NCBI GenBank assembly: GCA_016214785.1
Contig: JACRNV010000056.1
Location: 6,843 to 70,842, forward strand
Source of the DNA: Methanobacteriota archaeon
GTDB lineage: Archaea > Thermoplasmatota > Thermoplasmata > SG8-5 > JACRNV01
Direction of reading: 5' to 3'
DNA length: 64,000 bases
Shown piece after piece: positions 21,796 through 38,578 of this stretch. The notes beneath the pieces are model-generated. The model made no database searches and was not told where the DNA came from. It saw nothing but the letters and a program-made list of their open reading frames with translations. The position numbers and the translations under genes were made by a program. Positions within the stretch are counted from its first letter, which is position 1. Each line of letters begins with the position of its first letter.

Positions 21796-24700
21796 CTACT
21801 CCAAACGTGCCCTGCGCCTGCGGCTGAAGGCTATGCCAACCGAGACCATGATGAAAAGCATCGGCGCCGCCACGCCGGAGAACTCGGGGGCGTAGTAGAC
21901 GTAGGGGCCAGCCTCAGCAGCAGCGCCATTTCCTGGCGGCACTGTTTCGCTTGGAGCTTGGGCGATCCACCAGTAAGTGCCGCTCGCTGGAAGCGGAGTG
22001 GATGGTGTCCAAGTACCATCTACTGTAGAGTCAGTTCCCCAGTAAGTCCATGTAGCGCCATTATCGTTTGAACGATAGATATAGACTTGTCCAGGATATC
22101 CTGTCCATTGGTACGTGATGTCAGGATAAGCATTAGTAGAGCCACCCGAATTATTTGTGCCGGTGGCAAGCGCGGTGTCGTCCGCAAGCAAGTAGATACA
22201 CTTTGAGTAACCATATGTGTAGAACTTTTGCGCAGGGTTCGCGGAGCCATTCCAACACCATTTCTGTCTCAATGCATAATACCCACTACCCGGAAATGTT
22301 GTATCGTTGTATTGCCACGTAGCGTTCGCATTCTTGGTCATATCGCCTAGATATGTCCCTAAATTCGTTGGGTCAATCGGATTGGCGCTGTACCATACGC
22401 CATAGCCATAGTCCATCCATGATTGCTCGATGCCATGGTAGGGAGCAGAGACATTGCCCACTCCGATAAGGGCCCATGTCTTGTTGCACCCCCAATTGAT
22501 TGGGGTGTGTATCATCTCGAGGACAACGCTACCCATGAAATCAGAGGCTGCGTTCGACATTGCCTGTTCTGTCATTGCGCTGTAGTTGTAGCCATCGCTC
22601 GAGTTCGTGTAGAATACCTCGGTGCACTGCACTACGTAGTCGCCCGGGTTCCAGACAGCCCAGCGATTACCAATGTCTGCCGAAACCCTTGAACGGTACG
22701 GCGGTGTGCCTGCCACGTCGCTCCTGTTCCTCCATGTCTGCGGGAAGTTGTCATTTGGAGGGACGCCTGGGACTGATGAGTACCCCATGAAACAAACGGT
22801 TTCGGTGAAGGGATTGCCTGTTGACCATGCACCTTTTGTAACATCCCATGTGTATGTTATTCCGTTCGCAACGTCGTCGGCCGTGTTTGGCAATGCGTCT
22901 GGTCCAACCAGGACGTATCTTGTTCCGATGCCATTAGTACCGTTCATCGAATCGTATATCTGATTCGAAATCGTGTGTGCAGGAGCATTTACCACCGGCG
23001 GGTTGTCCTGCCTCGTCCCCGTCGCCCTCGCCACCGCCCCTATCGCCGCCGCATCGTCCCTTATCCCCGCCCAGTCCGTGGTCTCGATGTAGAGCTGGAT
23101 GCCCGCGCCGCTGCTGCCTATCTGCGCGAACGGCACGCCGGCCTCGAGCTGGTTGCCCCCCTTCTCGGCCTGGATGTCTGCGATGAAGCTCATCCCTGGG
23201 TATGAGAGGAGCTGGCGGGACGTGACCTTTCCTCCGTAGCCCTTTATCTGGATGCAGCAGTCGGCGTTTATCCCGCCGATGGGAGCGCCCTGGTTGGCCG
23301 CGCTGTCTATGTAGATGCGCGTGACGTCCTCGCCAGTTAACCTTGGAGAGTAAACCGTAGTCACATTGGTTGTCACATTGGTCGTGCCGTTCGTGGTCGC
23401 GTTCGTCGTAGCGTTGGACGGCGGCGCTGGCACCGACCTCACTCTCATGACCGGCGAGAAGCCGCCCTCGAGCGCCCTGCCCGCGGAGTTGAAGCGCACG
23501 TACGCATAGAGGCTCCCCGAGTCCGTCGTCCCCGCGCGCTCGACGACGTCGACGTTCGGGTCGGCGGCGTCGGCCGGGTCCGAGGCCTTGGTGACGCCGT
23601 TCCAATCGGCGAAGGCGCCGTCTATGGATATGCCTGCCGGTGCAGCGCGCACGTACGCCGCCAGGGGCTCGCCTTCGATCGAGCTTGGCCCGCTGGCGCT
23701 CACCGACGCGACGCCGGCCTTCACCAGCGTGCCGTCGTTGAGGTTCGCTATCTGCCCTATGACCGTGAGGTTGTTTCCCGTCCCCGCGCGCAGCGTCATG
23801 CCGGTGCCGAGGCCCGACACCGTCGTCGATGGGACCCCCGCGCTGCTCATCTGGATGCTGTTGACCGTCACATCCCTGCCGACGGCCATCAGGCTCAGCG
23901 TCGCGAGGTTGTCCGAGCTCAGGACGCCGTTCGTCCCCAGCGGGCTTTGCGTCACCACGAGGGCGCCGTTCGCGCCGTCGGCTATCGGCGCGCACATCTC
24001 GCCTGTGTTGTTGTCGCCCGCGCTGGCGAACCTCGCCCTGTAGCTGCCCGGCGTCAGGGTCGTCCCGAGGAAGGAGCCGAACTCCATTCTCGTACCGGAC
24101 GCCTTGGCCTTGCTCGACGATACGTGCGAGAGGGCGCTCCAGTTCAGCTGGTCTGCGCCCGTGAAGCGGCCGGCCTCGACGCTGAGCGTCCCGCCCCTCC
24201 AGCCCCAGACCTCGATGGCGTAGTTGGCCCCGATGCCGCCGATGGAGTATCCTGTGTTCGCGTTCGAATCGGAATCTATGAAGACCAGGAACCTGTCGGC
24301 CTGGAGCCGGTCGAAGATGTCCCCGCGCGTGCTGACGTAGCCGTAGACGGTATCTCCCTCCGAGGCTATGGAGAAGTCCCTGATGTCCAGCGCCGCGTCC
24401 TGCGCCGTCCTGATGTCCTGGTAGACGAGCTTCGTCGCCCAGTCGTCGAACCCGCCGTCCACGTCGACGAACTTCGGCGCGGCCGGAGGCGGGACCATGA
24501 GGACGTAAATCCCTGGCAGTATGACGATGAATGCGACTATCAACAGGACCCACAGGACCTTCGGCGGCAGCGTCCTTCGCCTCTGCTGGAGCCTCCTGCC
24601 GGACGGCGATATTGCATCGCCGTTCGTCAGGCCGTTGGTCAGGCCGTTCGTGAGGCCGTTGACCCACCCGTTGGTGCGCCCGGCGCCGTTGGTGACGCCG

Positions 24701-25272
24701 TTCGTCCTCCCATTGGTCTGGCCCCTGCCGTTCGTGAGCCCGCTGGCCATGCCGTTCGTCCGGCCGCCGCGGCCGTTCGTCAGGCCGTTGGTGCGCCCTA
24801 GCCCGTTCGTCCTGCCGCGGTCGCGCTTCCCCGTCTCCTTCTTCTGCTCCTCGATTGGCGCGCCGCTCGTGAGTCCCTCGCTTTTCTCGTCCCCCTCCAC
24901 CTCCTCTATCAGGCTGTAGAGGTCCTCGATTGCCATGGCCGCCTTCTCCTCGGAGGACATGGCTTCGAGCTTCTCCGGGGGCATGTCCCGGGCCGGCGCG
25001 CGGGGCCTCATGCCCTTCGATTCGCCTTCTATGTCCGGGTAAACGCTCTTGATCTCGTCTATTAATGAATCGACGTCGGCCTCCGTAGGCTCCGACGTGT
25101 CAATGAAGGTGGTGAGCTGGTCAAGCTGTGCTTCCGCCTCCTCGGCCTCGGACCTGGGCCTCGGCGGCACTTCCGGCGTGGCCCGCTCGGCCCCTAGCCC
25201 GGGCTCGGGCGCCTCCCCCTGCAATAGGGCTTCCTCTACCTCCTGCCGCTTTCTCCTGCTACGCTTGCTCAT
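21796..25272 (-). CDS. Giant (1,159 aa) membrane-anchored surface glycoprotein with N-terminal acidic/'TNG'-repeat region, internal TM, large sequon-rich ectodomain and PEF-CTERM-like C-terminal anchor
   Basis: Start MSKRSRRKRQ at ATG 25270-25272, downstream of an AT-rich promoter. (L/R)TNG repeats. TM VLWVLLIVAFIVILPGIYVLMV. >40 N-x-S/T sequons. C-terminus …YYAPEFSGVAAPMLFIMVSVGIAFSRRRRARLE is a PEF/PGF-CTERM-like tripartite signal. The 577-aa ORF in another frame is GC noise. Confidence 0.75.
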   Translation of the reverse strand: MSKRSRRKRQEVEEALLQGEAPEPGLGAERATPEVPPRPRSEAEEAEAQLDQLTTFIDTSEPTEADVDSLIDEIKSVYPDIEGESKGMRPRAPARDMPPEKLEAMSSEEKAAMAIEDLYSLIEEVEGDEKSEGLTSGAPIEEQKKETGKRDRGRTNGLGRTNGLTNGRGGRTNGMASGLTNGRGQTNGRTNGVTNGAGRTNGWVNGLTNGLTNGLTNGDAISPSGRRLQQRRRTLPPKVLWVLLIVAFIVILPGIYVLMVPPPAAPKFVDVDGGFDDWATKLVYQDIRTAQDAALDIRDFSIASEGDTVYGYVSTRGDIFDRLQADRFLVFIDSDSNANTGYSIGGIGANYAIEVWGWRGGTLSVEAGRFTGADQLNWSALSHVSSSKAKASGTRMEFGSFLGTTLTPGSYRARFASAGDNNTGEMCAPIADGANGALVVTQSPLGTNGVLSSDNLATLSLMAVGRDVTVNSIQMSSAGVPSTTVSGLGTGMTLRAGTGNNLTVIGQIANLNDGTLVKAGVASVSASGPSSIEGEPLAAYVRAAPAGISIDGAFADWNGVTKASDPADAADPNVDVVERAGTTDSGSLYAYVRFNSAGRALEGGFSPVMRVRSVPAPPSNATTNATTNGTTNVTTNVTTVYSPRLTGEDVTRIYIDSAANQGAPIGGINADCCIQIKGYGGKVTSRQLLSYPGMSFIADIQAEKGGNQLEAGVPFAQIGSSGAGIQLYIETTDWAGIRDDAAAIGAVARATGTRQDNPPVVNAPAHTISNQIYDSMNGTNGIGTRYVLVGPDALPNTADDVANGITYTWDVTKGAWSTGNPFTETVCFMGYSSVPGVPPNDNFPQTWRNRSDVAGTPPYRSRVSADIGNRWAVWNPGDYVVQCTEVFYTNSSDGYNYSAMTEQAMSNAASDFMGSVVLEMIHTPINWGCNKTWALIGVGNVSAPYHGIEQSWMDYGYGVWYSANPIDPTNLGTYLGDMTKNANATWQYNDTTFPGSGYYALRQKWCWNGSANPAQKFYTYGYSKCIYLLADDTALATGTNNSGGSTNAYPDITYQWTGYPGQVYIYRSNDNGATWTYWGTDSTVDGTWTPSTPLPASGTYWWIAQAPSETVPPGNGAAAEAGPYVYYAPEFSGVAAPMLFIMVSVGIAFSRRRRARLE
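24594..24849. repeat. Tandem 12/15-nt repeats (ccgttcgt/ccgttggt + cagg/gagg…) encoding the (G/R/L)TNG peptide repeats
   Basis: …ccgttcgtcaggccgttggtcaggccgttcgtgaggccgttgacccacccgttggtgcgccc… gives ~18 units, read on the minus strand as NG(L/R)TNG. Confidence 0.7.
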
Positions 25273-25299
25273 TTTGCAAAGTCCTCTCTGATAGAAAGA

Positions 25300-25345
25300 G
25301 TAGTAGAACGCTCCCTTTATAATATTATTTCTGTACCATATATAT
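25300..25345 (-). promoter_or_regulatory. AT-rich promoter (TATA/BRE-like) for the giant surface protein gene
   Basis: ttataatattatttctgtaccatatatatattatc lies 30-70 nt upstream of ATG 25272 on the minus strand, in an otherwise 63% GC context. Confidence 0.4.
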
Positions 25346-25346
25346 A

Positions 25347-25748
25347 TTATCTGACTATGAGCACCGGCCTGTCGGAGTGCCTGGCCACGCGCTCGGCCAC
25401 GCTGCCGATGGTGAAGCGCCCTATCTTGCTCGTGCCCGTGGAGCCTATGACGACGTAGCTGCACTTCATCTCCGACGCGAACTTCAGGATTTCTTCCACT
25501 ACGTTCCCTTCCCTGAGCACGCCCATGGCCGTCACGCCGCGCTGCTTCATGAGGTTGATGGCGTCGTTCACGACCTCCTGGGCCTTGGCCTTCGTCACGT
25601 CCGGCGGCAGGCCGGCTATCTCCCCGGGCAGGGCCGCCGGTATCACGTAGAGGACCATGATGTCCTCGTTCTCCGCGCAGACGGCGATGGCGCGCTGCAG
25701 AGCCTTTTTAGCGTCCTCGGAGCCGTCGTAAGCGACTAGAACTGTCAT
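25347..25748 (-). CDS. Universal stress protein (UspA family)
   Basis: Start MTVLVAYDGSEDAKKAL. C-terminal ATP-binding motif …VVIGSTGTSKIGRFTIGSVAERV. 133 aa. Confidence 0.85.
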   Translation of the reverse strand: MTVLVAYDGSEDAKKALQRAIAVCAENEDIMVLYVIPAALPGEIAGLPPDVTKAKAQEVVNDAINLMKQRGVTAMGVLREGNVVEEILKFASEMKCSYVVIGSTGTSKIGRFTIGSVAERVARHSDRPVLIVR

Positions 25749-26284
25749 TGCCCCTCTCCCTTCCTCTCTTCCTTCTCCCTCCTCTCCATGCGTTCCAGGC
25801 TCCTCTGCATCTTTCGCGCGAGGTAGACGAAATAGATGACGAACGGCACGAAGATGAAGACGGAGAACATCACGTCCAGGTGCGTGAGCTGGAGCAATGG
25901 CGTCTCCTTCACCAGAATCATCTTCGGCGCGGTCGCGTTCGTCCCTCCGTCCGCGTCCGAGCAAGCGAAGGAGTAGGTGTTCATCCCGCCCTTCAGGCGC
26001 GTGGAGTAGAAGTAGGCCTTGCCGTCCGAGAAGTTGGAGTCCGCGGCGTCGAACTCCTGCATGTCGTGGGAGTTGCCGTTTATCATGACCCTGACGCTCT
26101 GCGCCGACGCGTTCCCCTGGTAGGTGACCATGAAGACGTAGACGGCGCTGTCGTCCGAGGAGGTCGATGAGACGCCGCCGTTCAGCAGGCGCGGGTCGTC
26201 GGCGCGCGCGGCCGGCGGCATCAAGAGTGCGACCGCGACCAATGCCAGGGTGAATAGCGCCAACATCCTTGCGAGTTTCATCAA
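25745..26284 (-). CDS. Secreted/membrane protein (signal peptide, C-terminal TM, charged tail), co-transcribed with the UspA-family gene
   Basis: MMKLARMLALFTLALVAVALLMPPAARA signal; …VMFSVFIFVPFVIYFVYLARK TM. Its stop overlaps the UspA-family start (ATGA). Confidence 0.6.
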   Translation of the reverse strand: MMKLARMLALFTLALVAVALLMPPAARADDPRLLNGGVSSTSSDDSAVYVFMVTYQGNASAQSVRVMINGNSHDMQEFDAADSNFSDGKAYFYSTRLKGGMNTYSFACSDADGGTNATAPKMILVKETPLLQLTHLDVMFSVFIFVPFVIYFVYLARKMQRSLERMERREKEERKGEGQ

Positions 26285-26394
26285 CGAGCCAATGCCGGGA
26301 GGGAATAAAAGGGTTTGGGGCGGGGTGGATTCATTGGCTGTCTAATCTGGCACTTCCGCAGGTTTATATACCCGAATTAGACTATCCAAATACG

Positions 26395-26691
26395 ATGAAG
26401 GCAAGGGGATTCCAAGCAATTAAATCCACGATAGCGAGGCGCAAGCCGATGCTGGCCAAGAGGTATAAGGTGCGGCGGATCGGCGTTTTCGGCTCATGGG
26501 CGAACAGTAGGGCGAGGCAAAACAGCGACGTCGACGTTCTCGTCGAGCTGTCGGAGCCCATCGGCCTGGAACTGATGGCACTGAAGGAGTACCTCGAAAA
26601 GGCGTTGGGGCGCGAGGTCGACCTTGTCACCGTGAAGGCGCTCAAGCCCGCAATGCGCAAGGGGATTCTGGCGGAGGTCGTTTACGTTTGA
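26395..26691 (+). CDS. Minimal nucleotidyltransferase (MNT) antitoxin of an MNT/HepT pair
   Basis: GS-X9-DxD: …IGVFGSWANSRARQNSDVDVLVEL. TATA-like tttatata ~30 nt upstream. Its stop overlaps the HepT-like start. Confidence 0.85.
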   Translation: MKARGFQAIKSTIARRKPMLAKRYKVRRIGVFGSWANSRARQNSDVDVLVELSEPIGLELMALKEYLEKALGREVDLVTVKALKPAMRKGILAEVVYV

Positions 26692-27035
26692 TAAGGCGCA
26701 CGTCCCAGTACCTGGCGGATATGCTCGACGCCATCGACAAATGCGCATCCTATACTGACGGGCTCGCGTTCGCGCGCTTTTGCAAGGAAGACATGGCTGT
26801 GGACGCGGTGCTCAGGAACCTGGAAATCCTGGGCGAGGCGGCGCGGAACGTGCCCGCTTCCGCCAGGAGGAGGCATCCCGGCGTTCCGTGGTCCCTTCTC
26901 GTAGGCCTGAGGGACGTCGTAATCCACCAATACCACGGCGTCGACCTGGAGAATATCTGGAAGATAGTCAGGGAGGACCTCCCCGCCATACGAAGGCCGC
27001 TGCGTAAGGCTCTCGAAGAGGCCAAGGGGAATTAG
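26688..27035 (+). CDS. HepT-like (DUF86) RNase toxin
   Basis: R-x4-HxY motif (RDVVIHQY); 115 aa; TTG/ATG start overlapping the MNT-type stop. Confidence 0.85.
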   Translation: MIRRTSQYLADMLDAIDKCASYTDGLAFARFCKEDMAVDAVLRNLEILGEAARNVPASARRRHPGVPWSLLVGLRDVVIHQYHGVDLENIWKIVREDLPAIRRPLRKALEEAKGN

Positions 27036-27160
27036 GGGGCTGCATCATTTGGGCAAGGACGACACGGTCACGATCATCGACTACGGCATGGGCAACATCG
27101 GCTCCGGGAACATATAGTTAAAGAAATGCGGTTCCATCGAGAACATGGTCGAGCGCATGG

Positions 27161-27252
27161 GCGGCGCGCCGGGGGCTTCCGCAAGGCCATAGCGGGCGGC
27201 GGGCGCGTCCTTCGTCTTCCACGGGCCGCGCAGGGCGGTGCTGATAACCTAT
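27161..27252. repeat. ~90-nt structured intergenic repeat, copy 1
   Basis: ggcgcgccgggggcttccgcaaggccatagcgggcggcgggcgcgtccttcgtcttccacggg…ctgataacctat. An outer imperfect inverted repeat GCGCGCCCG…CGGGCGCG encloses an inner CCGC…GCGG stem. Confidence 0.7.
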
Positions 27253-27456
27253 CCTGCTAAGACAGAGCTGGAGGGCGCAATTCACGAATTGCGCTAGCGG
27301 AACATGCGGTTCCGCCGGGCGCTGGAGAAGTGAATGTTGCGTTGCATCTCCCAAAATTCATTATATCGTATCGTAAAGCATTCTAGTGGGGCATTGACAT
27401 ACCCCTTTTGTCATGCAAAACGCTTAAGTAGTCCAAAAACATACCTATAACGGACT

Positions 27457-28698
27457 ATGAAAGATATTTATGGTTCGTTGTTCGCCGAATGGAAGGGGAG
27501 GCGCAGGGAGGGCCTGCTGCCCAGGGACAACCCGCTGTCCAAGTACGTGGGGTTCAAACCGAGGAAGATAATCGCCGCCACTGGGCTCAGGCGCGTGGGA
27601 AAGACGTGCATGCTCTACCAGCTCGCCGGGCCGGAGCGGGAGAAGATACTTTACATCAACTTCGACGACGAGCGGGTCCCGGCCCGGACCGAGTTCCTCA
27701 CGGGCTTGGTGCCAGCCATCAAGGACATGCTGGACGTGAGGCCGGGGACGCTCTACCTCGATGAGGTCCACCGCCTGCCGGACTGGAGCCGCTGGCTCAG
27801 GCGAGCATACGACGAGGGCGAGTTCGATATCTTCGTGACGGGCTCGGGGGCGCAGCTGTCCAGCGAGGAGATACCCTACGAGCTGAGGGGCCGGTGCCTG
27901 GAAGTGCGAGTCCGCCCGCTGGCTTACGCCGAGTTCCTCGGTTTCAAGGGCGTCGGCGCGACGACCGCGCTCCTTGAGGAGTACCTGCTGTATGGCGGGA
28001 TGCCCGAGGTCGTCCTGGCCAGCGGGGACGTGAAGCTCGACTTGCTGCGGCAGTACTACGCCACGGTGATAAGGCGGGACATCATCGAGCGGTTCAGGAT
28101 CAGGAACCCCGAGGCGCTGAAGGCCATGCTGAAGCTGCTGGCGAACTCGACGCAGTTCTCGTTCACCAAGCTCTACAACACTATACGTAGCATGCAGATG
28201 AGGGTCGGCAAGGCGGCGGTCATCAGGTACATGTCCCATATCGAGTCATCGTACCTGCTGCGCTCCGTCCCGATCCTGTCGCCGAAGGTCAAGGACCAGA
28301 TGCGCCACCCGAGGAAGGTCTACTTCGAGGACACGGGGTTTGTTTCCGCGCTGTCTACACGCTTTTCCAAGAACTACGGAAGGCTTTGCGAGAACGCGGT
28401 GGCGAACCGGCTCTCGGCGCGGGGCTATACGCTCCACTACTGGAAGTCCACGGATGGGCGCGAGGTCGACTTCGCCGTACGAACCGACGGCGGCGTGGAG
28501 GCCCTGGTCCAGGCGTGCTGGGAGCCCTGGGAGGACTCGACCCTGAAACGGGAGATGTCGGCGCTCGTCACCGCGTCATCGGAGCTGTCTTGCGATGAGC
28601 TGATGGTGGTCACCCGGGACCGCGCCGGGGTCGAGGAGCACCGGGGGAAGAGGATAAGGCTCTTGCGTCTCGGCGACTGGCTGCTCGGCGAGGCCTGA
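27457..28698 (+). CDS. AAA+ ATPase of the COG1373 / DUF4143 family
   Basis: Walker A (TGLRRVGKT), Walker B (LYLDEVH), C-terminal DUF4143-like region. AT-rich promoter upstream. Confidence 0.85.
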   Translation: MKDIYGSLFAEWKGRRREGLLPRDNPLSKYVGFKPRKIIAATGLRRVGKTCMLYQLAGPEREKILYINFDDERVPARTEFLTGLVPAIKDMLDVRPGTLYLDEVHRLPDWSRWLRRAYDEGEFDIFVTGSGAQLSSEEIPYELRGRCLEVRVRPLAYAEFLGFKGVGATTALLEEYLLYGGMPEVVLASGDVKLDLLRQYYATVIRRDIIERFRIRNPEALKAMLKLLANSTQFSFTKLYNTIRSMQMRVGKAAVIRYMSHIESSYLLRSVPILSPKVKDQMRHPRKVYFEDTGFVSALSTRFSKNYGRLCENAVANRLSARGYTLHYWKSTDGREVDFAVRTDGGVEALVQACWEPWEDSTLKREMSALVTASSELSCDELMVVTRDRAGVEEHRGKRIRLLRLGDWLLGEA

Positions 28699-28718
28699 GG
28701 CGGTCGTGACTGCGATCG

Positions 28719-28800
28719 CGGGGCGCGCCCGGGGGGGCTTCCGCAAGGCCATAGCGGGCGGCGGGCGCGTCCTTCCCGTTCAACGGGGCGGCGCCGATGA
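28719..28800. repeat. ~90-nt structured intergenic repeat, copy 2
   Basis: ggggcgcgcccgggggggcttccgcaaggccatagcgggcggcgggcgcgtccttcccgttcaacggggcggcgcc…; 5' 55 nt are ~95% identical to copies 1 and 3. Confidence 0.7.
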
Positions 28801-28812
28801 CGTATCTTGTGA

Positions 28813-29037
28813 ATGACCGGGGCGCAACCGTTTTATGCCCATGGATGGATAGGCCATGCGATGGCAGGAGACGACCTGTTCGGCAAGACCGTGACGAAGC
28901 GCTACCTCTCCGCATACGAAGACGTGGTGCGGGAGATAGAGAGATCGACAGGGAAGAGACCGGAGCCCTGCAAGGACCTGGAAGAGAGTGTGCTGGTCTC
29001 TTTGTTCAGGGGCCTGCGGGCCAAGAGAGAGAGATGA
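28813..29037 (+). CDS. Small hypothetical protein (start uncertain; possibly internal ATG 28861)
   Basis: 74-aa ORF ending in TGA that overlaps the next ATG (ATGA at 29034-29037). Weak support. Confidence 0.3.
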   Translation: MTGAQPFYAHGWIGHAMAGDDLFGKTVTKRYLSAYEDVVREIERSTGKRPEPCKDLEESVLVSLFRGLRAKRER

Positions 29038-29408
29038 ACGGTTTCGACTTCATCGCGGAGATGCTATCTTCCCTGATAGTCGACCAAGCGCTCCCAAACG
29101 CCAACCACAGGACTGCGCTGTACTTCATCGGCACGATGCTGAAGCAGCGCGGCCTTGATATCGATGCCGTGCGCCACGCCCATGCGATCCGCGAATATTT
29201 CAGGGACTCGAAGCACACGCTGGAAAAGGCAAGGAAGGACTACAAGTCCCAGCATCTCGAATTGACCAGAAGATTCTTGGCTGAAGTTCTAGGCAGCGCT
29301 CAATCTGGAAGGCTCGGGAGGATCTTGGCGTACTCCCTCATGAACTCCTTCGCGGCCTCCTCGAAGGACATCTCTTTCTTGACAGGCCCTGCCATGGAAG
29401 ATGAATAG
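29034..29408 (+). CDS. Hypothetical protein (124 aa)
   Basis: ATG 29034 overlaps the upstream stop. Codon third-position GC bias is consistent with coding. No recognisable family. Confidence 0.4.
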   Translation: MNGFDFIAEMLSSLIVDQALPNANHRTALYFIGTMLKQRGLDIDAVRHAHAIREYFRDSKHTLEKARKDYKSQHLELTRRFLAEVLGSAQSGRLGRILAYSLMNSFAASSKDISFLTGPAMEDE

Positions 29409-29440
29409 GCTATGGCGAGTATAAATAGTTGGCGCCGCTG

Positions 29441-29527
29441 GGGAGCGCGCCCGGGGGGCTCCCGCAAGGCCACAGCGGGCGGCGGGCGCGTCCTTCGTCT
29501 TCCACGGGGCGGCACTGATAACTTATA
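29441..29527. repeat. ~90-nt structured intergenic repeat, copy 3 (preceded by tataaatag TATA-like box)
   Basis: ggggagcgcgcccggggggctcccgcaaggccacagcgggcggcgggcgcgtccttcgtcttccacggggcggcactgataacttat. Confidence 0.7.
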
Positions 29528-29595
29528 CGCCGAAAGGAGAGCTGAAGAGGGCGCTCGGCAGGTAGCTCCTGAAATGGGTCAATCCGAGGGCGCGT

Positions 29596-31383
29596 TCACC
29601 TCAGCATCCTCACCATGTCCTTGTACTTGGTTACTTCCGCGCCCTTGTCCAGCTTTTTAACGACCCTGGCGCCCTTCCACGAGAAGATCCCGTCCTCGGA
29701 CAGGACGACCTCCTCGAACCTGACCTCTATGACGTCCCCCTTCTCGGCGACGATGTCCGTGTATGCCGTCGCGCCGATCTTCTCCCCGTTTGCATCCTCG
29801 CACGTGTAGAGGCGCGCCCTCTCGCCGTTCGGGCGCTCTATCTCCTTCACCTTGGTTACGCGCACGCGCACCCTGTTCCTGCGCCGGAAGACGGCGAGGA
29901 CGATGACGAAGAGGACGACGATGCCGGCCACGAAGGGGAGGATTGTCATCGGGTCGAATGTCAATGTAATGGGGCCCGCGCCCCCTCCCTGCGCGGACGG
30001 CGGCGGGGCGGGGTTCACAATGGCCTGCAGCGAGGCGTAGTTGTTGTCCTCGTTCGGCTCAGCCAGCGCATTCGAGCTGTCCGCAACCACCGAGAGGGTG
30101 TATCCCCCCTGGTCGGGCCTCCATACGAAGTCGACGTTCGTGTGGTTCCCTGCGCCAAGGGACGGTATGGAATTGTTCCTGTATGCCTCTCCGTTGATGC
30201 TCAGCGAGACGAAGAAGCCGCCTGCCGGGCCGCGCCCGACGTTATGGACCGTTGCCCTGACGGTTATCGTGACGTTGGCGGTCAGGTTGGCCGGGTTCGG
30301 GGCGAGGACGTAAATCTCGCTCGGCCTGACCTCCAGGTCGGGGGCCATGTTCGAGAAGACTGTGAAGGACTTCGCCGCCGATGCGTTTGAGTACTGGCCG
30401 TTGGTCGATGTGGCCCAGTACGTGACTATGTCCCCCTGCCCGTAGCTTGCGTTGTCGAGGAAGTGCGAGAAGCGGCCGTTGGCCTGGTCGTACGCCATCG
30501 CGAACGACTGCGCCGCCCCGCCCGAGACGCTGTAGTGTATGTCGCACTGCGCGCCCGCCGCCGTCTGGACTGTGGCGTAGAGCATCGCGTCGTCGTCGGC
30601 GTATACTACCGTTGGCTCGTGCCAGACGTCCACGATGTCCGCGGGCGTCGGGAGGCGGAACGATGAATGTTTCAGGTCCACGGGGGCGCCCGCCGCGTCC
30701 GTGAGGTTGAAGGCGACTGTGTAAGTCGTTCCCAGCTGGAGGGTGCCCGACCACGGGACCGCGAGCGGGAGGGACTGGCCCGCGGCCAGGGAGGTGGCGT
30801 TCGCCGCCCGCGTCTCTATCCAGGCGCCGCCCTGCGTGAGGTTGAAGGTCAGGTTGCCGTCGAAGGTGGCGTTCGCGAAGTTGGAGACTGTGGCTCTGGC
30901 GCCCGAGCCGTCGGCCGAGTACTGGCTGAGGTAGACGAGCGCGGGGACGCTGACGGCCGCGCCCAGGGCGGCGCTCACGGCGCCGGGCGCGCTCGCGCCG
31001 CCGCCCCCGCCCCCGGACGGGGGCTGGCCGGAGGCCGATATCTGGCCCGTGTACGAGCCCGGCGCCTTCGCGGGGAACGAGACGTTGAACTCCATCGTGC
31101 GCCTTTCTCCAGGCTGGAGCCTGAAGCTGGTGGCTCCCTTCCACGAGAGCCACTGGGCGATGTCGCCCGAGGCCACGACGCTGATGTCCAGGAAGCTCTG
31201 GGACGTGTTCGACAGGCCGACGACCACGCTGCCGTCGAAGACCTGCGCCGCCCACGGCTGGGCCTGGAACTTGGTGTCGCCGGCGAGGGAGACCGAATAG
31301 GAGGCGCCGGCCCCCGGCACGAGAAGTACGACGCTGGAGGCGACCAGGAGAAGGGCGAGTGCGAGCGCGGAGGCCTTCGTCAT
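29596..31383 (-). CDS. Surface glycoprotein with CARDB-like domain, single C-terminal TM and ~90-aa cytoplasmic tail domain
   Basis: Signal peptide MTKASALALALLLVASSVVLLVPGAGA. Gly-rich linker. CARDB-like …VTITVRATVHNVGRGPAGGFFVSLSINGEA…. TM ILPFVAGIVVLFVIVLAVF, then RRRNRVRVRV and a folded-looking tail. Confidence 0.7.
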   Translation of the reverse strand: MTKASALALALLLVASSVVLLVPGAGASYSVSLAGDTKFQAQPWAAQVFDGSVVVGLSNTSQSFLDISVVASGDIAQWLSWKGATSFRLQPGERRTMEFNVSFPAKAPGSYTGQISASGQPPSGGGGGGASAPGAVSAALGAAVSVPALVYLSQYSADGSGARATVSNFANATFDGNLTFNLTQGGAWIETRAANATSLAAGQSLPLAVPWSGTLQLGTTYTVAFNLTDAAGAPVDLKHSSFRLPTPADIVDVWHEPTVVYADDDAMLYATVQTAAGAQCDIHYSVSGGAAQSFAMAYDQANGRFSHFLDNASYGQGDIVTYWATSTNGQYSNASAAKSFTVFSNMAPDLEVRPSEIYVLAPNPANLTANVTITVRATVHNVGRGPAGGFFVSLSINGEAYRNNSIPSLGAGNHTNVDFVWRPDQGGYTLSVVADSSNALAEPNEDNNYASLQAIVNPAPPPSAQGGGAGPITLTFDPMTILPFVAGIVVLFVIVLAVFRRRNRVRVRVTKVKEIERPNGERARLYTCEDANGEKIGATAYTDIVAEKGDVIEVRFEEVVLSEDGIFSWKGARVVKKLDKGAEVTKYKDMVRMLR

Positions 31384-31444
31384 ATAATCAACTGCAAGAG
31401 GGATGTGAATAAAATGGTTTTGGAAAAGGTTTTGAATTGCGCGT

Positions 31445-32413
31445 CTAGACGTTCTTGGCTTGTATCCAGATGGTCACGCCGGTATAAACGACGTTCTTAG
31501 CGAGGCCCGCGGGTAGAACAAGGTTCATGTAGTGTGTTTGATTTAGCATATATCCGGTAGTGCTTGAATACCAAGTCGCGTTATTTCCAGGGCTCGCACT
31601 GGCATTTAACAACTGTGTAGCTGTGCTTTGACCGGCATTTTTTACCCAAATAGTTGGATCAACTGTTGGCACTCCCCACGCTTCGCCAGAACCGCCTAAG
31701 AAAAAGCCAGTATAACTTGCATTGAGTTGATAAGCATCGTTTGAGGTAACAACCGTATAGAATGTAGATGACACATTAGATTCTGGCGCGCCGGTCCATG
31801 CAAAGTTTGTTGTCCCTGTAGAAATCGTTGCGTACGTAATTTCTACAAAGGATGCCATGCCTAAATAGCTTATTGACGTGGTTCCGATTCCACCAGATAA
31901 ATCCTCTGAGGTCCCATTTATTATCCAAATTAGCACACCATTTGAATCGATTGCAGTCTTATTTAAAATAATATTAAATGACAAGACCTTCGTTGTGGTG
32001 CTAACATCAACTTCTGTAACACCATTTAAATAAACACCTGATGTCGGTGCGAACTGGCTTGGAATATCATTTACAGAATCATATCCAAATTTATACGAAC
32101 CACTTGGGTTGTTGGTCGCATAGCCAGATGCAGGGAATCTCAATGTAAAATTAGATTGAAAAACATCATCCGTCCCATCAGCATCATTAACACTGATATT
32201 GACGTAGAAATTTGTATTCGGAATAATAGTACTGATCAGAGTCCAACCACTATTCAACACTGTAATGTTCGCCGTCGGTGTCGCGTTTTGAACTGTCACC
32301 GATGCTGTCCCCTCGGCTCGTACCGACCCCATCGCTGCAAAGGCAAGTAACCCCACAAGGAGTATTACCCCTATTTTTCCTTTCATATAGAACCTCAGCT
32401 TATTAGAAAGCAA
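31445..32413 (-). CDS. Secreted Thr/Ser/Asn-rich protein (signal peptide), first gene of the low-GC island
   Basis: MKGKIGVILLVGLLAFAAMGSVRA signal; many N-x-S/T sequons; GC ~42%. Confidence 0.6.
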   Translation of the reverse strand: MLSNKLRFYMKGKIGVILLVGLLAFAAMGSVRAEGTASVTVQNATPTANITVLNSGWTLISTIIPNTNFYVNISVNDADGTDDVFQSNFTLRFPASGYATNNPSGSYKFGYDSVNDIPSQFAPTSGVYLNGVTEVDVSTTTKVLSFNIILNKTAIDSNGVLIWIINGTSEDLSGGIGTTSISYLGMASFVEITYATISTGTTNFAWTGAPESNVSSTFYTVVTSNDAYQLNASYTGFFLGGSGEAWGVPTVDPTIWVKNAGQSTATQLLNASASPGNNATWYSSTTGYMLNQTHYMNLVLPAGLAKNVVYTGVTIWIQAKNV

Positions 32414-32449
32414 TATCTTCTATAATAATTTATGTGATTTGAGATATTG

Positions 32450-33064
32450 TCAACTATTCGGGACTTTTTGGGCAACATATCTGATCAGGTTCAACAGTTT
32501 TCTTCTCCCTAACCGTATGTCAATCTCGGCCTTTTCCGCAGGGGTCCTCCCGTCCAATCTCATATGGGGGTTCACGAAGTTATGAATGATGGGTCGGAGG
32601 TCGAGAAATGCCTCTGCTCCTTCATCGCTGCCAAAACCCCGCATAGTTTTTGTCCGGTCATTGATGTCACCATTGTAACGCTCGATAGGATTGTTGTTGT
32701 GTTCCAGGCCGTATTTTTTGCATGCGATAGGCACACCGAATTGCAACTTCGCAACTCGAAAGAACAGTTTGTTGAATGCAGCCTTATATAGCCCGAATTT
32801 ATCACTTACGAACGTGACGCGTTTTCTTTTCTTTACTGGCTTACATTTTTCTTTGCGATAGATTTCGAGTATTTGATCGTAGCATGTTCTCTTTATCTGC
32901 ATCAGGAATTCCACGCAGTTCTCGAAGGTACGTGCTTGGACGTACAGATGCGCCAAAATGTACTTTGTTTTGGAATCTATCGCATTCAGGTCATATCTGC
33001 CTTCTTTCCCCACCTTCACGTATTTTTCGCCATAGTGGATTTGTCCCTTGATGATGGGGTTCAC
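32450..33064 (-). CDS. IS6-family transposase, DDE catalytic fragment (OrfB), +1 frame relative to OrfA
   Basis: GTG start 14 nt after the OrfA stop; alignable to IS26 transposase residues ~70-230, including the C-terminal …RGFGSDEGAEAFLDLRPIIHNF…. The frame break sits at the T6A4 homopolymer (33081-33090). Confidence 0.7.
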   Translation of the reverse strand: MNPIIKGQIHYGEKYVKVGKEGRYDLNAIDSKTKYILAHLYVQARTFENCVEFLMQIKRTCYDQILEIYRKEKCKPVKKRKRVTFVSDKFGLYKAAFNKLFFRVAKLQFGVPIACKKYGLEHNNNPIERYNGDINDRTKTMRGFGSDEGAEAFLDLRPIIHNFVNPHMRLDGRTPAEKAEIDIRLGRRKLLNLIRYVAQKVPNS

Positions 33065-33077
33065 ATTGGCCGAGAGC

Positions 33078-33377
33078 CTATTTTAAAAAATCGGAGTACT
33101 TCCGAACCCATTTTGCAATCGCCCACCGAGAAACCCGAACTCCATCGTGTTGCCACAGGTGATTCTTCACCTTTGATAAAGAGAGGCCATCGTTGTGCAT
33201 GTGTATGGCCCGCACAATGATGGCTGGCTTATTTCTCATGCGCTCAAACCCGTCAGATTTGATAAAGCGTCTCTGGCACCTTTTGCACATGCATCTTTGT
33301 TTCGAGCCAGACGTGTTCTTTCTCCTTCCTCGCTTTATCACCTCTTTCGATCCGCAGTATGGGCATGCCAAACGCAT
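33078..33377 (-). CDS. IS6-family transposase, N-terminal zinc-finger/HTH fragment (OrfA)
   Basis: CPYCGS…C…CKRC zinc finger plus HTH resembling the IS26 transposase N-terminus. Ends in TTTTTTAAAATAG. Confidence 0.7.
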   Translation of the reverse strand: MRLACPYCGSKEVIKRGRRKNTSGSKQRCMCKRCQRRFIKSDGFERMRNKPAIIVRAIHMHNDGLSLSKVKNHLWQHDGVRVSRWAIAKWVRKYSDFLK

Positions 33378-33484
33378 TTTATCGCCACGGGTGCATTATC
33401 GCAAGAGGTATTTATAAGTCCCGTTAAGTGGACAATATTCACATACACCAAAATATTTATCTTAATATGCTGTCTGGTTTTTAG

Positions 33485-35002
33485 ATGCCTGGCATAAAAC
33501 GAAAGCTTGTTCGTAATACAATCGCAAATGCAATAATGAAATTTTGGGGTTATATTATTGGATTTTTGATGTTCCCTTTCATAGTCGGATATGTGGGTGT
33601 AGAGGATTACGGATTATACCTTCTAGTGGGTGCTTTCGTAGGCTATTTTGGGTTGCTTGACTTTGGCGTCAGCGGAGCACTAGTGAAATATGTCGCAGAA
33701 TATAACGCGAAAAATGAAAAAGAAACCATTAATAAAGTAATCAATTCAACTTTTGTTTTTTATACAATAATTGGTGTAGTAATTTGTGCCTTCGTATTAT
33801 TACTTGGAACTTATTATGTAGATTTTTTTAAGATCGAGAGTGGAGACCTCTGGAAAGCAAGACTGATTGCTTATCTAATGGCAATAGGAGCATTGACTAG
33901 TTGGCCAATGAGAAGCTTTAGTACTTCTTTAGATGGCTTGCAACGATATGATCTGAGCGCCATTATCAATTTTATAACGGTAAACATTAACGCCATTGTT
34001 ACTGTAACGCTACTTCTACGTGGTTTCGGAATCGTAGAAATTATTTTTTCAGGGATTGTAATTGGGGCTCTCAGCCAAATAATAATAGTTCTAATAATGA
34101 AAAAGCTATTACCTTACGTTGAGTTGAAAAAGTCGTATATTGAATTTAGTACCCTAAAAAAGGTTTTTACATTTAGTAGTGTTTTATTTATCTCACAGCT
34201 CATCGGAATTCTAATGTTTGGGTTTGATCGTCTTTTATTAGGCATATTCGTATCTGTAGCTGCGATTACTTATTACGCTGTAGCTAGGAAGTTATTTGAT
34301 ATCGTCGCTACTGTAACGTATATTCCTCAGAGCGCGTTACTTCCTGCGGCTACAGAGCTTGAAGCTTTGAATAAAAAAGAGTCGTCAACAAAATTGTTGA
34401 TTAAAACCAGTAAATATTATAGTGCTGTCTGTCTTTCTACGACTGTATTGATTTTTTTTCTAGCCGAGCCAATTATTCTTTTTTGGATGGGAAGTGAATT
34501 TATTGGCATGGCCATTATGACTCAGGTCTTTATATCCTATGGTTTTTTTACCTCGTTTGGAGGTGTTGCAAATAGCTTTCTGTTAGTTAAAGAAAAGTAC
34601 AAGGTGATTCTTTTAATCCTTTTAATTATTTCCATCGCAAACCTTATTCTAAGCATTATCTTAGTTCAATACATAGGAATTATGGGTGTTGTCCTTGGAA
34701 CAACAATTCCAAATATCGTTACAGCACCTATTTTGATACCATATATGCTTAAGCAGCTTGATATAGATATTAAAAGATACCTAAAGAGTATTGTCCCGCA
34801 AACGTACATCCCTGCATTAATCATGTCTGTTTCCATTTATCTCATAATGAATTTTATTACTATTTCATCGATAGTGATTTTAGGTTCAGTTGCGATAATT
34901 AGCTTACTAATCTATTACCTAATATTTTACTTTATAGGACTTGACAAAGAAGAAAAAAATGATTTATTTCGGTTAATAACCTTTAAAAAGAATGTTGTTT
35001 AA
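33485..35002 (+). CDS. Wzx-like polysaccharide/oligosaccharide flippase (MOP superfamily, Polysacc_synt)
   Basis: 505 aa, ~14 TM helices, typical N-terminal …NTIANAIMKFWGYIIGFLMFPFIVGYVG…YGLY… motif region. GC ~33%. Confidence 0.85.
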   Translation: MPGIKRKLVRNTIANAIMKFWGYIIGFLMFPFIVGYVGVEDYGLYLLVGAFVGYFGLLDFGVSGALVKYVAEYNAKNEKETINKVINSTFVFYTIIGVVICAFVLLLGTYYVDFFKIESGDLWKARLIAYLMAIGALTSWPMRSFSTSLDGLQRYDLSAIINFITVNINAIVTVTLLLRGFGIVEIIFSGIVIGALSQIIIVLIMKKLLPYVELKKSYIEFSTLKKVFTFSSVLFISQLIGILMFGFDRLLLGIFVSVAAITYYAVARKLFDIVATVTYIPQSALLPAATELEALNKKESSTKLLIKTSKYYSAVCLSTTVLIFFLAEPIILFWMGSEFIGMAIMTQVFISYGFFTSFGGVANSFLLVKEKYKVILLILLIISIANLILSIILVQYIGIMGVVLGTTIPNIVTAPILIPYMLKQLDIDIKRYLKSIVPQTYIPALIMSVSIYLIMNFITISSIVILGSVAIISLLIYYLIFYFIGLDKEEKNDLFRLITFKKNVV

Positions 35003-35014
35003 TATTTTTTTAGG

Positions 35015-36226
35015 TTAAGAGTATTTTCGTATTAACTCATTATATTTTACGGTGAAATCCTCCATATTTTTATACCAATTACCTATTTCAAGTGCGCGTT
35101 CACGACATCTCATTCCAAACAACAGTCTTTCATCTTTTTTATTAAGAAGGAATGTAATTTTTTCTGCAAGATCATTAGGATCAGAAGGCCGAAAGGTATA
35201 ACCATTATACTTATTTTCGACTGCAAGTAATAAGGCACCTGGTCTATTCGCGGCCACTATGGAAACACCGCAACTCATTGCCTCAAGCAATGATACGCCG
35301 ATCCCTCCACCGCCTACTTGAATCGGCATAGGATCCACATAGATATCTGAGCTAGCGAAATATTTTGGTATATCTTGATGCGCAAGGTGTCCAATAAAAA
35401 TAACTCGATTTTTCATACCTAGCGATTCGCTCAATCTGATTAAATTATCCTTTTCAGGGCCATCTCCTATAATTAATAATGTAATATAATCATGTTTTGA
35501 AATTATTTTAGCAAAAGCCTTGAGTAATGTCTCAGTGTCATAGGCCTTCTTTAATGCATTCGCTGAAGTTATTATTATTCGATTAGGATTTTTACAAATC
35601 TCCATTCGTAATTCTTCGGAACATTGGGAAGGGTTAAAAAAATCCGTTTCAACACCCCAAATCTGTATGAATATTTTACTTGTTGGACAACCAAGTTCGA
35701 TAAGTCGGTCGCGTCCGGGGATGTCTCCAGTATGTACTAAATCTGCTTTTTTAAACATCTCAATATATTCTTTGTGTTGTTTTGAACCGATAATAGTTGA
35801 GGCTATATCCCCGCCCCATGCACTCAATATTAGTGGATGACGATTCACTTTACATGCCCAATATCCGAATTTACGTAAATAATGACCATGTACAATATCT
35901 GGTTTTATCCTATGTACTAAATATGTAATTTTAACAAATGTGAATAATATATCAAGAGCCGTTATAATTTTCCGAAATAACTTTTTTCTACATTTTTCCC
36001 AATAAAAATTTAATGTGTGTATATCGTGAAGAATGATATTATTGGGATACACGTATGCACCTGGAAAAACACTTTTAGTAATAACTGGGGATTTGAAACC
36101 TGTTGTAAAAAAAAATAGATGAATTATATGTCCCTTACTAGCAAAATAGTCGCACCACCGTTGAGTGTGAATACTATAGATATCACTAAAGATGCATAAT
36201 GTGAGCCGCACGGGCTTTTTATCCAT
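35015..36226 (-). CDS. GT4-family glycosyltransferase
   Basis: C-terminal E..S.G..EAMSCGVSIVA…NGYTF motif set. Start trimmed to MDKKPVRLTLC. Confidence 0.8.
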   Translation of the reverse strand: MDKKPVRLTLCIFSDIYSIHTQRWCDYFASKGHIIHLFFFTTGFKSPVITKSVFPGAYVYPNNIILHDIHTLNFYWEKCRKKLFRKIITALDILFTFVKITYLVHRIKPDIVHGHYLRKFGYWACKVNRHPLILSAWGGDIASTIIGSKQHKEYIEMFKKADLVHTGDIPGRDRLIELGCPTSKIFIQIWGVETDFFNPSQCSEELRMEICKNPNRIIITSANALKKAYDTETLLKAFAKIISKHDYITLLIIGDGPEKDNLIRLSESLGMKNRVIFIGHLAHQDIPKYFASSDIYVDPMPIQVGGGGIGVSLLEAMSCGVSIVAANRPGALLLAVENKYNGYTFRPSDPNDLAEKITFLLNKKDERLLFGMRCRERALEIGNWYKNMEDFTVKYNELIRKYS

Positions 36227-36354
36227 CTCTGATTTTGAATCGTTGTTTTTTATGATCATATAGCAACTAGAAAACGTTATAAAGTGGGGATTAATAGACT
36301 TTGCCATAGGTTTAATATATGGACATCCTCTCATTTCAATCATCGGACAAGAAA

Positions 36355-37398
36355 ATGACTGGTGGTCATAGACCATACAATATAGATAAAGCGCTGGAAT
36401 CGCTTGGCGATAAAGTTACGAGGGTTGTGAATTGGCGCGATTGGGGAATAGACCGTAAGTTGGTGAAGAGACTTACACCAACTCAAATTAATAATAGGTT
36501 AAAACTAAAAAAGTTTCTTGATTTACAAATAAAAAATAAAATCATCCTTTTCCATGGAATCCAAAATGAAAAACTATTGGGCAAGTTTTCCAACTACAGA
36601 TTTCCAATAGTTCTTGATTATAGAGATGACCCCATTCTTCAAGCAGAAATGAATGGCATTCCGATTAATGTAGATAAGGCTAAAAAATTAATTGAATACA
36701 ATTTCAAATCATCTGACATAATCCTCTTTCCTTCAAAGACTCTTATGGATTATTACAGCGAATATAAAGAAAAAGCAATCGTCGTTATGAACGCTTCTGA
36801 CCCTAGTCATTTTAAGTATTCGAAAAATCCACTGAATGATAAAGCAATTTGTCTCTATCCACCAATGCCATGCTTTTTTTATCCGGACGTGCTGGATGCT
36901 AGTACCCTAGTTAGAAACCATATAAAGAATTTCGAAATATCTATCATGAACCTCCAAGCAAAGTATCGAAAATTTTATGGTGATTTTGATAAGACAATAC
37001 ACGTAAAGTATGAGCATCCTTGGATATCGTCCTTCAACTCGATGCCATATAGCGAAATAGGTAAGTTCATTAGTCAATTCACCATTGGTATTATCGCATA
37101 TAAGAAATTCACCTACGCGAACCTGGGTACACCTTTAAAACTCTTTGATTTAATGGCATGTGGACGACCAATCGTCGCCATGCGATGCAAAGAAATTGAA
37201 AAAATCGTTAGCGATGCAAACTGCGGGTTACTTTGTGATTTTACTAAAGAAGATTTAGCAGAAAAAATGATAAATTTACTAGAAAATTCTGATCTGATAA
37301 TAAAAATGGGAGAAAACGGAAGGAGAGCCGTCGAAAAGAAGCATAGCTGGATTCATCGCGCAAAAGTAATTCAAGATGAGATATTGAAATTAACTTGA
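36355..37398 (+). CDS. Glycosyltransferase (GT1/GT4-like C-terminal domain)
   Basis: …KLFDLMACGRPIVA…CGLLCD… C-terminal domain; low GC. Start uncertain (36319/36355). Confidence 0.6.
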   Translation: MTGGHRPYNIDKALESLGDKVTRVVNWRDWGIDRKLVKRLTPTQINNRLKLKKFLDLQIKNKIILFHGIQNEKLLGKFSNYRFPIVLDYRDDPILQAEMNGIPINVDKAKKLIEYNFKSSDIILFPSKTLMDYYSEYKEKAIVVMNASDPSHFKYSKNPLNDKAICLYPPMPCFFYPDVLDASTLVRNHIKNFEISIMNLQAKYRKFYGDFDKTIHVKYEHPWISSFNSMPYSEIGKFISQFTIGIIAYKKFTYANLGTPLKLFDLMACGRPIVAMRCKEIEKIVSDANCGLLCDFTKEDLAEKMINLLENSDLIIKMGENGRRAVEKKHSWIHRAKVIQDEILKLT

Positions 37399-38466: not shown

Positions 38467-38578
38467 CAGAGAAAAATTATATTGACCGGAGAGACCGGCT
38501 ATTATATTCTCAATGTGCGTTTCAACGCCACCGATTAGTGGTTTAAATTTATCATAGTATAAACAAACCCGTTTAATT

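Follow-up and report, generated by a model that had tools for sequence, protein, structure and literature searches.

Three direct repeats, here called R1, R2 and R3, lie within 2.4 kb of a 64,000-nt stretch of archaeal DNA (contig JACRNV010000056.1; the window), and we identify them, with high confidence, as three partial, dead copies of the 3′-terminal ~130–140 nt of an aglZ/hisF2-like gene. A preliminary description of the locus had presented them as a structured, cassette-like repeat bracketing an ATPase gene and two small open reading frames (ORFs); we read the apparent structured repeat as a triplicated pseudogene end, so that the locus no longer points to a new RNA or repeat family. As judged from the sequence, the copies are best taken as recombination scars, in a hot spot of gene insertion, that mark the junctions between the modules of a small defence and toxin-antitoxin (TA) island. 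A surface-glycan locus (hisH-aglZ, beside genes for CARDB surface proteins and a glycosyltransferase island) would in this way have given way to this island.

The repeat itself is easily recovered. Positions are those of the window unless one of the related contigs used for comparison (L005–L019) is named. The 32-mer CCGCAAGGCCATAGCGGGCGGCGGGCGCGTCC occurs on the plus strand at 27179, 28741 and 29462 with 0, 0 and 1 mismatches and has no occurrence in 100 dinucleotide-preserving shuffles, and a repeat search combined with MAFFT alignment returned a single family of three direct copies. The copies previously placed at 27161–27252, 28719–28800 and 29441–29527 are thereby found where they had been described, on the plus strand, whereas their lengths had been underestimated: local alignment to an outside homologue, the aglZ gene of contig L015, extends the homologous units to the approximate bounds given in the table below, and the nhmmer profile alignments span 27156–27284, 28717–28831 and 29439–29558.

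Overall, the copies are 78–88% identical in pairwise comparison. As had been noted before, the first ~55 nt (the core) are well conserved and the 3′ tails variable, with the first ~55 nt 89–100% identical to one another and tails far more diverged. Set beside L015 aglZ, the cores are 89–94% identical among the copies but 57–63% identical to that gene, and the tails are 58–73% identical among copies, which is the same distance as that of each tail from L015 aglZ. This contrast between core and tail would point either to recent exchange or conversion limited to the core or to tails of different origin, and a single duplication followed by neutral decay does not fit it. Written as core and then tail, the variants are (a, x) in R1, (a, y) in R2 and (b, x) in R3, and all three copies start within ~10 nt of one another on aglZ.

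No fourth copy was detected by nhmmer in the 64-kb window. The best further match (62081–62131, E=0.005) was rejected, as it falls within the coding sequence of an unrelated ATPase. Exact searches with a 21-mer of the R core gave 3 bacterial matches in 185,579 species genomes, 1 in a metagenome and 0 in viral sequences, none of which extends beyond ~25 nt and all of which we attribute to chance, and a plasmid BLAST search with R1 returned no match. Within the reach of these data the repeat is thus local and lacks covariation, the outcome that the preliminary description had itself named as speaking against its proposal.

The identity of the repeat comes from L015, a 7.5-kb JGI contig located via its DUF8172 homologue, on which the gene order is Usp (minus strand), DUF8172, hisH, a hisF-like gene and AbiEii (minus strand). 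An nhmmer profile of R1–R3 matches the 3′ end of this hisF-like gene (5866–5960, E=4.2e-10) and, a second time, a scrap just 5′ of the L015 DUF8172 gene (E=7.5e-4). The hisF-like protein belongs to AglZ_HisF2_fam (NCBIfam NF038364, acetamidino modification protein; 356 bits against a cut-off of 310), a family that acts together with HisH in acetamidino-sugar modification. At the protein level, the conceptual peptide of R1 matches positions 216–247 of the 248 in NF038364, that is, the last 32 (E=7.3e-7), and tblastn with the C-terminus of the L015 HisF protein (amino acids 224–252) finds R3 at E=3.4e-4 and R1 inside a composite match at E=3.8e-8. The L015 AglZ C-terminus, AAGAFFVFHGPHRAVLITYPAEGEMGRAMES followed by the stop, aligns with in-frame R1, AAGASFVFHGPRRAVLITYPAKTELEGAIHELR and stop, and also with R3, which reads AAGASFVFHG and, after a gap, AALITYTPKGELKRALGR and stop.

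R covers the last ~50 codons of the aglZ family, R1 extending from about codon 200 to the stop. In-frame stops end R1 (TAG, 27295–27297) and R3 (TAG, 29563–29565), the latter at a distance of 30 nt from the convergent CARDB gene's stop, as expected for the 3′ end of the native operon. R1 holds 9 nt (GPRRA codons, against GPHRA) that are missing from R2, R3 and the L015 scrap; these 9 nt are ancestral, with R2, R3 and the scrap carrying a deletion. The reading frame is broken by indels in a G-run (5, 6 and 7 G), by a stop in R1 (27190–27192) and by the 9-nt deletion in R2 and R3, and the G-run indels together with the stop codon indicate that the copies are dead. The G-run indels also shift the frame between copies, which ruled out a small-peptide gene. 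What had looked like a GC-rich hairpin is simply a run of GC-rich AglZ codons (...GG..F.KAI.GG..AAGA.FVFHG...), the 5′ part encoding ...GG..FRKAIAGG... in a shifted frame. Relative to the AglZ/HisF2 family and its HisH partner, the repeats thus share homology with the last ~50 codons and have hisH remnants adjoining, and they differ in being a 3′ fragment only, present in three copies whose indels break the frame. Neither aglZ nor hisH was found in functional form in the window.

Three sequence coincidences were set aside in the course of this assignment. GAGCTGGAGGGCGC at the right end of R1, considered as the 'ELEGA' of hisH, is actually the aglZ C-terminus, its identity with L015 hisH being coincidental. 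The motif CCCGGGGG(G)CT, common to the window and L005 and considered as a conserved junction element, maps to another part of aglZ (the ...YPGGWNGR... tail) and is likewise coincidental. R1 also resembles a truncated L009 gene of the DUF354 family over 15 nt and GAGCTGGAGGG, but the spacing is inconsistent and the match was put down to chance.

The surroundings of the copies are in keeping with a dismantled operon. The genes on both sides (21796–26284 and 29596–32413) lie on the minus strand and the 3.3 kb between them on the plus strand, where the present order is MntA-HepT, hisH′::′aglZ (R1), a hisH scrap, the ATPase, ′aglZ (R2), DUF8172 and ′aglZ (R3). Comparison with L015, which still holds hisH-aglZ, shows in our reading that this interval formerly held the same pair; a plus-strand hisH-aglZ operon between the Usp gene and the convergent CARDB gene would have been wrecked by insertions. 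At R1, codon 27 of the hisH fragment is joined to aglZ at a common TGGGCGG microhomology, which makes R1 a hisH′::′aglZ deletion fusion. The hisH fragment carries an insert of ~30 nt with a stop codon, its peptide reading TVTIIDYGMGNIGS...IENMVERMGG, and 27064–27098 is 88.6% identical to a hisH scrap in L005. The stretch that follows R1 is probably a second hisH scrap, although this is a weak inference.

R2 begins 4 nt past the ATPase stop and runs straight into the DUF8172 promoter (GGGCGCAACC followed by GTTTTATG), and the junction of R2 tail and DUF8172 promoter is shared with the aglZ scrap upstream of L015 DUF8172. R1 and R2 flank the ATPase, and R2 and R3 flank DUF8172, as would repeats at an attachment (att) site in a gene 3′ end, with no integrase inside the units. 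The cassette-like arrangement seen in the preliminary description therefore holds in so far as the copies sit at the junctions of separately inserted modules (the ATPase and DUF8172), and fails in that the sites are not of the attC type. The Logan contig L013 (SRR12113407, same organism) breaks inside R3.

The same layout recurs in relatives and elsewhere in the window. L008 has the locus and architecture of the R locus with another gene duplicated, namely an orthologue of the CARDB gene at 29596–31383 (36% identical, E=6e-79); the proximal target gene is intact there. On L015, L016 and L019, the repeats that flank DUF8172 are unrelated to one another. Within the window, the ATPase paralogue at 46529–47794 on the minus strand had been described as surrounded by rearrangement scars, and it is indeed flanked by duplication scars. 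The feature that recurs is a single-gene defence or TA unit set between two copies of the end of a neighbouring gene, and the copied sequence varies from place to place.

The nearest relative of the ATPase (84% nucleotide identity) is on L005, where hisH scraps once more lie ahead of the gene and TGAGGCGCAATCGTTTTATCC follows it, corresponding to the junction between the R2 end and the DUF8172 promoter, and then by an aglZ-tail-like scrap. From this we infer that the order hisH′-ATPase-′aglZ-DUF8172-′aglZ may be older than the split between the organisms of the window and L005. L015, a distant relative (DUF8172 ~70% identical in amino acids), has an intact hisH-aglZ pair with no downstream duplicate, and its DUF8172 gene is upstream instead. 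DUF8172 coding scraps also adjoin the stops of AAA_14/DUF4143 ATPases on L016 (973–1044) and L012 (1376–1423), which indicates that the two module types repeatedly end up adjacent.

We think it probable that the copies arose through insertion of modules by recombination at a gene end. The full account that we favour, which joins aglZ-end copies with single-crossover entry and exit of modules and host homologous recombination, is likely, if held slightly less firmly. A circle carrying a module and one copy of the gene end would meet the resident gene end and integrate by a single, Campbell-type crossover, leaving a gene-end copy on each side of the module; modules would leave by the same route, and R-module-R units, once formed, could use R to excise and insert again. 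Through exchange, the copies would hold the 55-nt core near-identical while the tails remain old and diverged. Host homologous recombination, or recombination that is otherwise non-specific, would be preferred over a dedicated integrase because repeat lengths vary (26 to ~150 nt), because the repeated sequences are unrelated between places, because the copies are imperfectly identical and because no tyrosine or serine recombinase domain was found among 56 of the larger window ORFs scanned with Pfam or in the called genes of related contigs. Of the two kinds of recombination, the homology-driven kind is clearly favoured.

Several points weigh against this account. The peptides of R2 and R3, searched alone, do not match the AglZ profile, and these two copies are assigned to aglZ because of their DNA homology to R1 and to L015 aglZ. 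The mechanism is drawn from anatomy, and neither a circular junction nor an empty site nor a strain variant was observed. Homologous recombination is inefficient on imperfect homology of 26–50 nt. The starts of the three copies within ~10 nt on aglZ could equally be the fixed att boundary of an integrase encoded outside the window, and the near-identical 55-nt core beside diverged tails could reflect selection on the core for some function.

An integrase is at the heart of one alternative, which we regard as possible though unlikely. R1–R3 would be att sites of a dedicated tyrosine or serine integrase whose gene lies elsewhere in the genome. The units of ATPase and DUF8172 would then be satellite cassettes without an integrase, or stripped remnants of larger elements, arranged in tandem in the aglZ 3′ end. 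Direct repeats derived from the 3′-distal part of a protein gene, in tandem array, are the classical pattern of archaeal integrated elements (PMC6563490); the common start on aglZ, the variant arrangement, which fits a reciprocal crossover between core and tail, and the intact proximal target gene in L008 all agree with it. Set against this are the search for a recombinase domain, which found none among 56 of the larger ORFs of the 64 kb or on any related contig, and modules that are single genes abutting the repeats. In addition, the duplicates that flank the same module families elsewhere (26 to ~150 nt) are unrelated in sequence, among them the hisH promoter, the CARDB 3′ end and the 5′ end of the gene at 44908–45690, and this spread argues against one fixed att sequence. 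A tRNA-derived att site was also considered and rejected, since neither ARAGORN nor Rfam shows a tRNA or tRNA fragment at R or at the related loci. Improbable by comparison is a plain local duplication of the aglZ 3′ region, through replication slippage or unequal crossing-over, followed by unrelated insertions and decay, in which the repeats would have played no role in the arrival of the modules. The restriction of the repeat to a 2.4-kb locus within the window, the lack of a genuine exact 21-mer match in public collections and the wealth of pseudogene scraps in the region speak for it. On the other side, every module junction has a copy, the layout of gene end, module and gene end turns up with different sequences at five or more further places, and the unequal divergence of core and tail misfits one duplication followed by neutral decay.

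The readings of the preliminary description that made R a functional element fare worse. In its broadest form, R would be a structured element under selection, whether a small RNA, a 3′-untranslated-region or terminator hairpin, or a protein-binding DNA hairpin, and this we consider very improbable. Among copies, conservation is far higher in the 55-nt core than in the tails, the core contains complementary arms (GCGCGCCCG and CGGGCGCG), and one T-to-C change converts a G-U pair into a G-C pair. However, folding of each copy on both strands is no better than that of dinucleotide shuffles (z +0.5 to +1.8), so that the reported stem-loop is not thermodynamically unusual. RNAalifold gives covariation a term of 0.13 kcal/mol, and of 31 pairs a single one changes on both sides and is broken in one copy; with three near-identical sequences the power is low, so that this outcome fails to support a structure but does not disprove it. 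Rfam, at gathering score, reports two tRNAs only in the whole window, and at E<=10 the interval 27000–29700 yields only RAGATH-16 at an E-value of 4.2, which is a chance match. The copies have no promoter in common, the sequence is accounted for by AglZ codons, and the G-run varies. The TATA-like box before R3, proposed to drive an RNA from this copy, belongs to the DUF8172 module and faces away from R3. The likeness to a miniature inverted-repeat transposable element or repetitive extragenic palindromic element did not stand either, with three local copies only, no terminal inverted repeats seen at R and no copies elsewhere in the available data. The chance that R is an attC of integron type, and the locus a CALIN (a cluster of attC sites without an integrase), is very small indeed. 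Short cassettes in the same orientation, each followed by an imperfect palindrome of ~100 nt, and TA genes, which are typical cassette cargo, give the idea its appeal, and integrons do exist in archaea, with attC sites reported as canonical (PMC9668308). That canonical form is at odds with R, as no pair of R″ (RYYYAAC) and R′ (GTTRRRY) boxes 50–150 nt apart occurs on either strand of 26200–29700; no IntI was found among 56 of the larger window ORFs, and the sequence is a gene fragment. The earlier suggestion of gene-cassette recombination sites of this type is thus abandoned.

Comparison with known systems places the locus. In archaea, integrated elements that target 3′-distal regions of protein genes and line up in tandem are on record (Krupovic et al. 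2019, PMC6563490), so the structure of the R locus is of a known kind; the unusual point is the lack of an integrase in such tiny units. With these integrated mobile genetic elements (PMC6563490) the locus shares repeats that copy the 3′ end of the target gene, flank each unit and accrete in tandem, as well as the intact proximal gene of L008. It differs in that no integrase was found in the units or within 64 kb, in that the units are single genes of 0.7–1.5 kb, and in its long (~130 nt), imperfect repeats, the unrelated duplicates elsewhere and the destroyed target operon. Integron arrays and CALINs of archaea (PMC9668308) likewise have short cassettes in the same orientation, each with a repeat of ~100 nt, TA and defence cargo, and repeats that resemble one another within a genome; in contrast, R has no R″/R′ boxes, no IntI or attI, and is a decayed coding fragment, and recombination here, if any, would be homology-based or act on a duplex att site, not on a folded single strand. 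A further parallel lies in the Tycheposon islands of Prochlorococcus, whose cargo modules are reportedly separated by partial tRNA repeats. These islands resemble the R locus in growth by repeated integration at one gene end, in partial gene copies between cargo and in having some modules without a recombinase; their target is reportedly a tRNA gene and their recombinases are identified, whereas the R locus has a protein gene as target and no known recombinase.

A bolder extension of the favoured account, homologous recombination at gene ends, is speculative. In it, the units of PDC-S01 ATPase, DUF8172, MNT-HEPN and AbiE would be mobile cassettes without transposase or integron machinery, moving by way of a portable end of a neighbouring gene and forming integron-like arrays with sites of 26–150 nt, and the 55-nt core of R would be the segment of active exchange. 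Should the recurring layout of gene end, module and gene end, seen on several related metagenomic contigs, reflect a regular insertion route, it would give archaea a simple way to shuffle single defence genes, and partial gene-end duplicates would be a practical marker for such insertions in metagenome-assembled genomes (MAGs).

Table. Parts of the R locus and comparable gene-end duplications (window coordinates unless a contig is named)
Feature	Position	Strand	Evidence or context
Module 1: MntA-like nucleotidyltransferase + HepT RNase toxin	26269–26691; 26688–27035	+	Pfam NTP_transf_2 1.5e-12; HepT-like 8.8e-25
hisH 5′ pseudogene fragment, codons ~1–27 (TVTIIDYGMGNIGS...GSIENMVERMGG)	27047–27166	+	tblastn with L015 HisH, E=2e-7 over 27064–27210
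R1, aglZ 3′ end to TAG	27157–27297	+	NF038364 peptide match; tblastn and nhmmer against L015 aglZ
Probable second hisH scrap (...GNMRFRRALEK-stop)	27298–27335	+	Read from sequence; resembles the GNMRHY...LEKVGG scrap before the L005 ATPase
Module 2: ATPase unit	27397–28702 (gene 27457–28698)	+	Promoter TTTTGTCATGCAAAA + TATA CTTAAGTA; Pfam AAA_14 1.7e-29, DUF4143 1.2e-21
R2, partial aglZ 3′ copy, 9-nt deletion, decayed tail	28702–28832	+	Alignments, nhmmer
Module 3: DUF8172 (PF26511) Doc-like gene	28861–29408	+	ORFs 28861–29037 and 29034–29408; TATA ~28829–28837
R3, partial aglZ 3′ copy, 9-nt deletion, to TAG 29563–29565	29430–29565	+	tblastn E=3.4e-4, nhmmer, alignment
TATA-like box (29421–29428) + antisense 31-aa ORF, 29395 down to 29300 (MAGPVKKEMSFEEAAKEFMREYAKILPSLPD)	29300–29428	−	Overlaps DUF8172 3′ end
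CARDB-domain surface protein, convergent right border of the plus-strand island	29596–31383	−	Pfam CARDB 1.4e-22; identical to NCBI HZB92_08170
3′ end of CARDB orthologue, one intact copy + two fragments	L008: 3553–3668, 4992–5037, 6670–6791		Flank ATPase unit and AbiEi/AbiEii pair
~100-nt repeats, 79–90% identical	L016: 3248–3346 / 4053–4150		Flank DUF8172
47-nt repeats, 91% identical	L019: 1741–1787 / 2651–2697		Flank DUF8172
26-nt perfect repeat of hisH promoter	L015: 3779–3804 / 4549–4574		Flanks DUF8172
92-nt and 67-nt repeats, 88% and 75% identical, of the 5′ end of gene 44908–45690(−)	45561–45718 / 46387–46537		Flank MNT-containing module
38-nt perfect direct repeat	45455–45492 / 47895–47932		Brackets MNT-containing module + ATPase paralogue 46529–47794(−)

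Turning to the modules themselves, the MntA-like and HepT genes of module 1 are predicted to form a type VII TA pair; they match NCBIfam MntA_antitoxin and HepT_toxin below cut-off as well as PADLOC PDC-S09, and the true start of the MntA-like gene is probably downstream of 26269. The gene between R1 and R2 had been taken for an ATPase, which its AAA_14 and DUF4143 domains confirm, and it also matches the PADLOC candidate PDC-S01 (6.7e-92). With the same boundaries and in unrelated contexts, the ATPase unit recurs on eight metagenomic contigs (L005–L012). Exact-protein look-ups found neither the ATPase nor the deoxyhypusine synthase on record. Directly 5′ of the ATPase TATA lies an inverted motif, TTTTGT-N3-TGCAAAAC, present in the window (27405–27436), in L005 (~1715–1745) and in L009 (~756–790), which may be an operator for autoregulation.

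The two small ORFs between R2 and R3, described as a pair, are instead one DUF8172/Doc-like gene split by a frameshift: the homologues (176–178 amino acids, 63–73% identical) span both ORFs, the first of which corresponds in alignment to their 55 N-terminal residues. The frameshift falls at an (AG)5 run (~29022–29036) and could represent a true pseudogene, slippage-based phase variation or an error of the MAG consensus. The transcript is predicted to be leaderless. The Doc signal is weak and below cut-off (TIGR01550 DOC_P1, E=0.008), and the local Pfam copy gave no match; JGI names the homologues of PF26511/DUF8172 'prophage maintenance system killer protein'.

The TATA-like box at the 3′ end of this gene has a context of its own. 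In the window, L015, L016 and L019, a TATA box is conserved 10–35 nt 3′ of the DUF8172 stop, each time ~24 nt upstream of an antisense ATG. The antisense ORF that follows is 28–31 amino acids long across the four lineages, ends in ...EFM(R/K)EYAKILPSLPD before the stop, and lies at ~4417–4532 in L015, ~3917–4040 in L016 and ~2474–2600 in L019; on L016 the antisense ATG is outside the DUF8172 ORF, yet the antisense ORF is kept. Among identical amino-acid pairs, the fraction of identical codons is 0.80 in the last 32 DUF8172 codons against 0.46 elsewhere. Because TATA box and antisense ATG are conserved in four lineages, a leaderless antisense transcript is a more probable product of the box before R3 than an RNA of R3 itself. 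The minus-strand ORF at 29395–29300 could be taken as spurious, since the plus-strand ORF has homologues, but the conserved TATA and ATG make it a possible overlapping gene. The antisense ORF may be an overlapping antitoxin gene, namely the missing antitoxin of the Doc-like gene, or may mark an antisense RNA.

Beyond the R locus, the window contains a low-GC island at ~32000–45000 (30–42% GC, against ~62% elsewhere) that holds a flippase, six GT1/GT4 glycosyltransferases, an FkbM methyltransferase and a DUF354 gene. An IS6/IS240-type DDE transposase (32450–33064), with 33078–33377 upstream of it, lies at the left edge, and the island is probably a horizontally acquired glycan cluster. Two adjacent pairs of paralogues of ~1,000 amino acids were also seen, one with Kelch repeats (4221–7322 and 7360–10419) and one with TPR and zinc ribbons (51201–54302 and 54302–57400). 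Lastly, Rfam places a tRNA of 163 nt on the minus strand at 61653–61815, implying a long intron of ~90 nt and marking the genome as archaeal; ARAGORN missed this tRNA.

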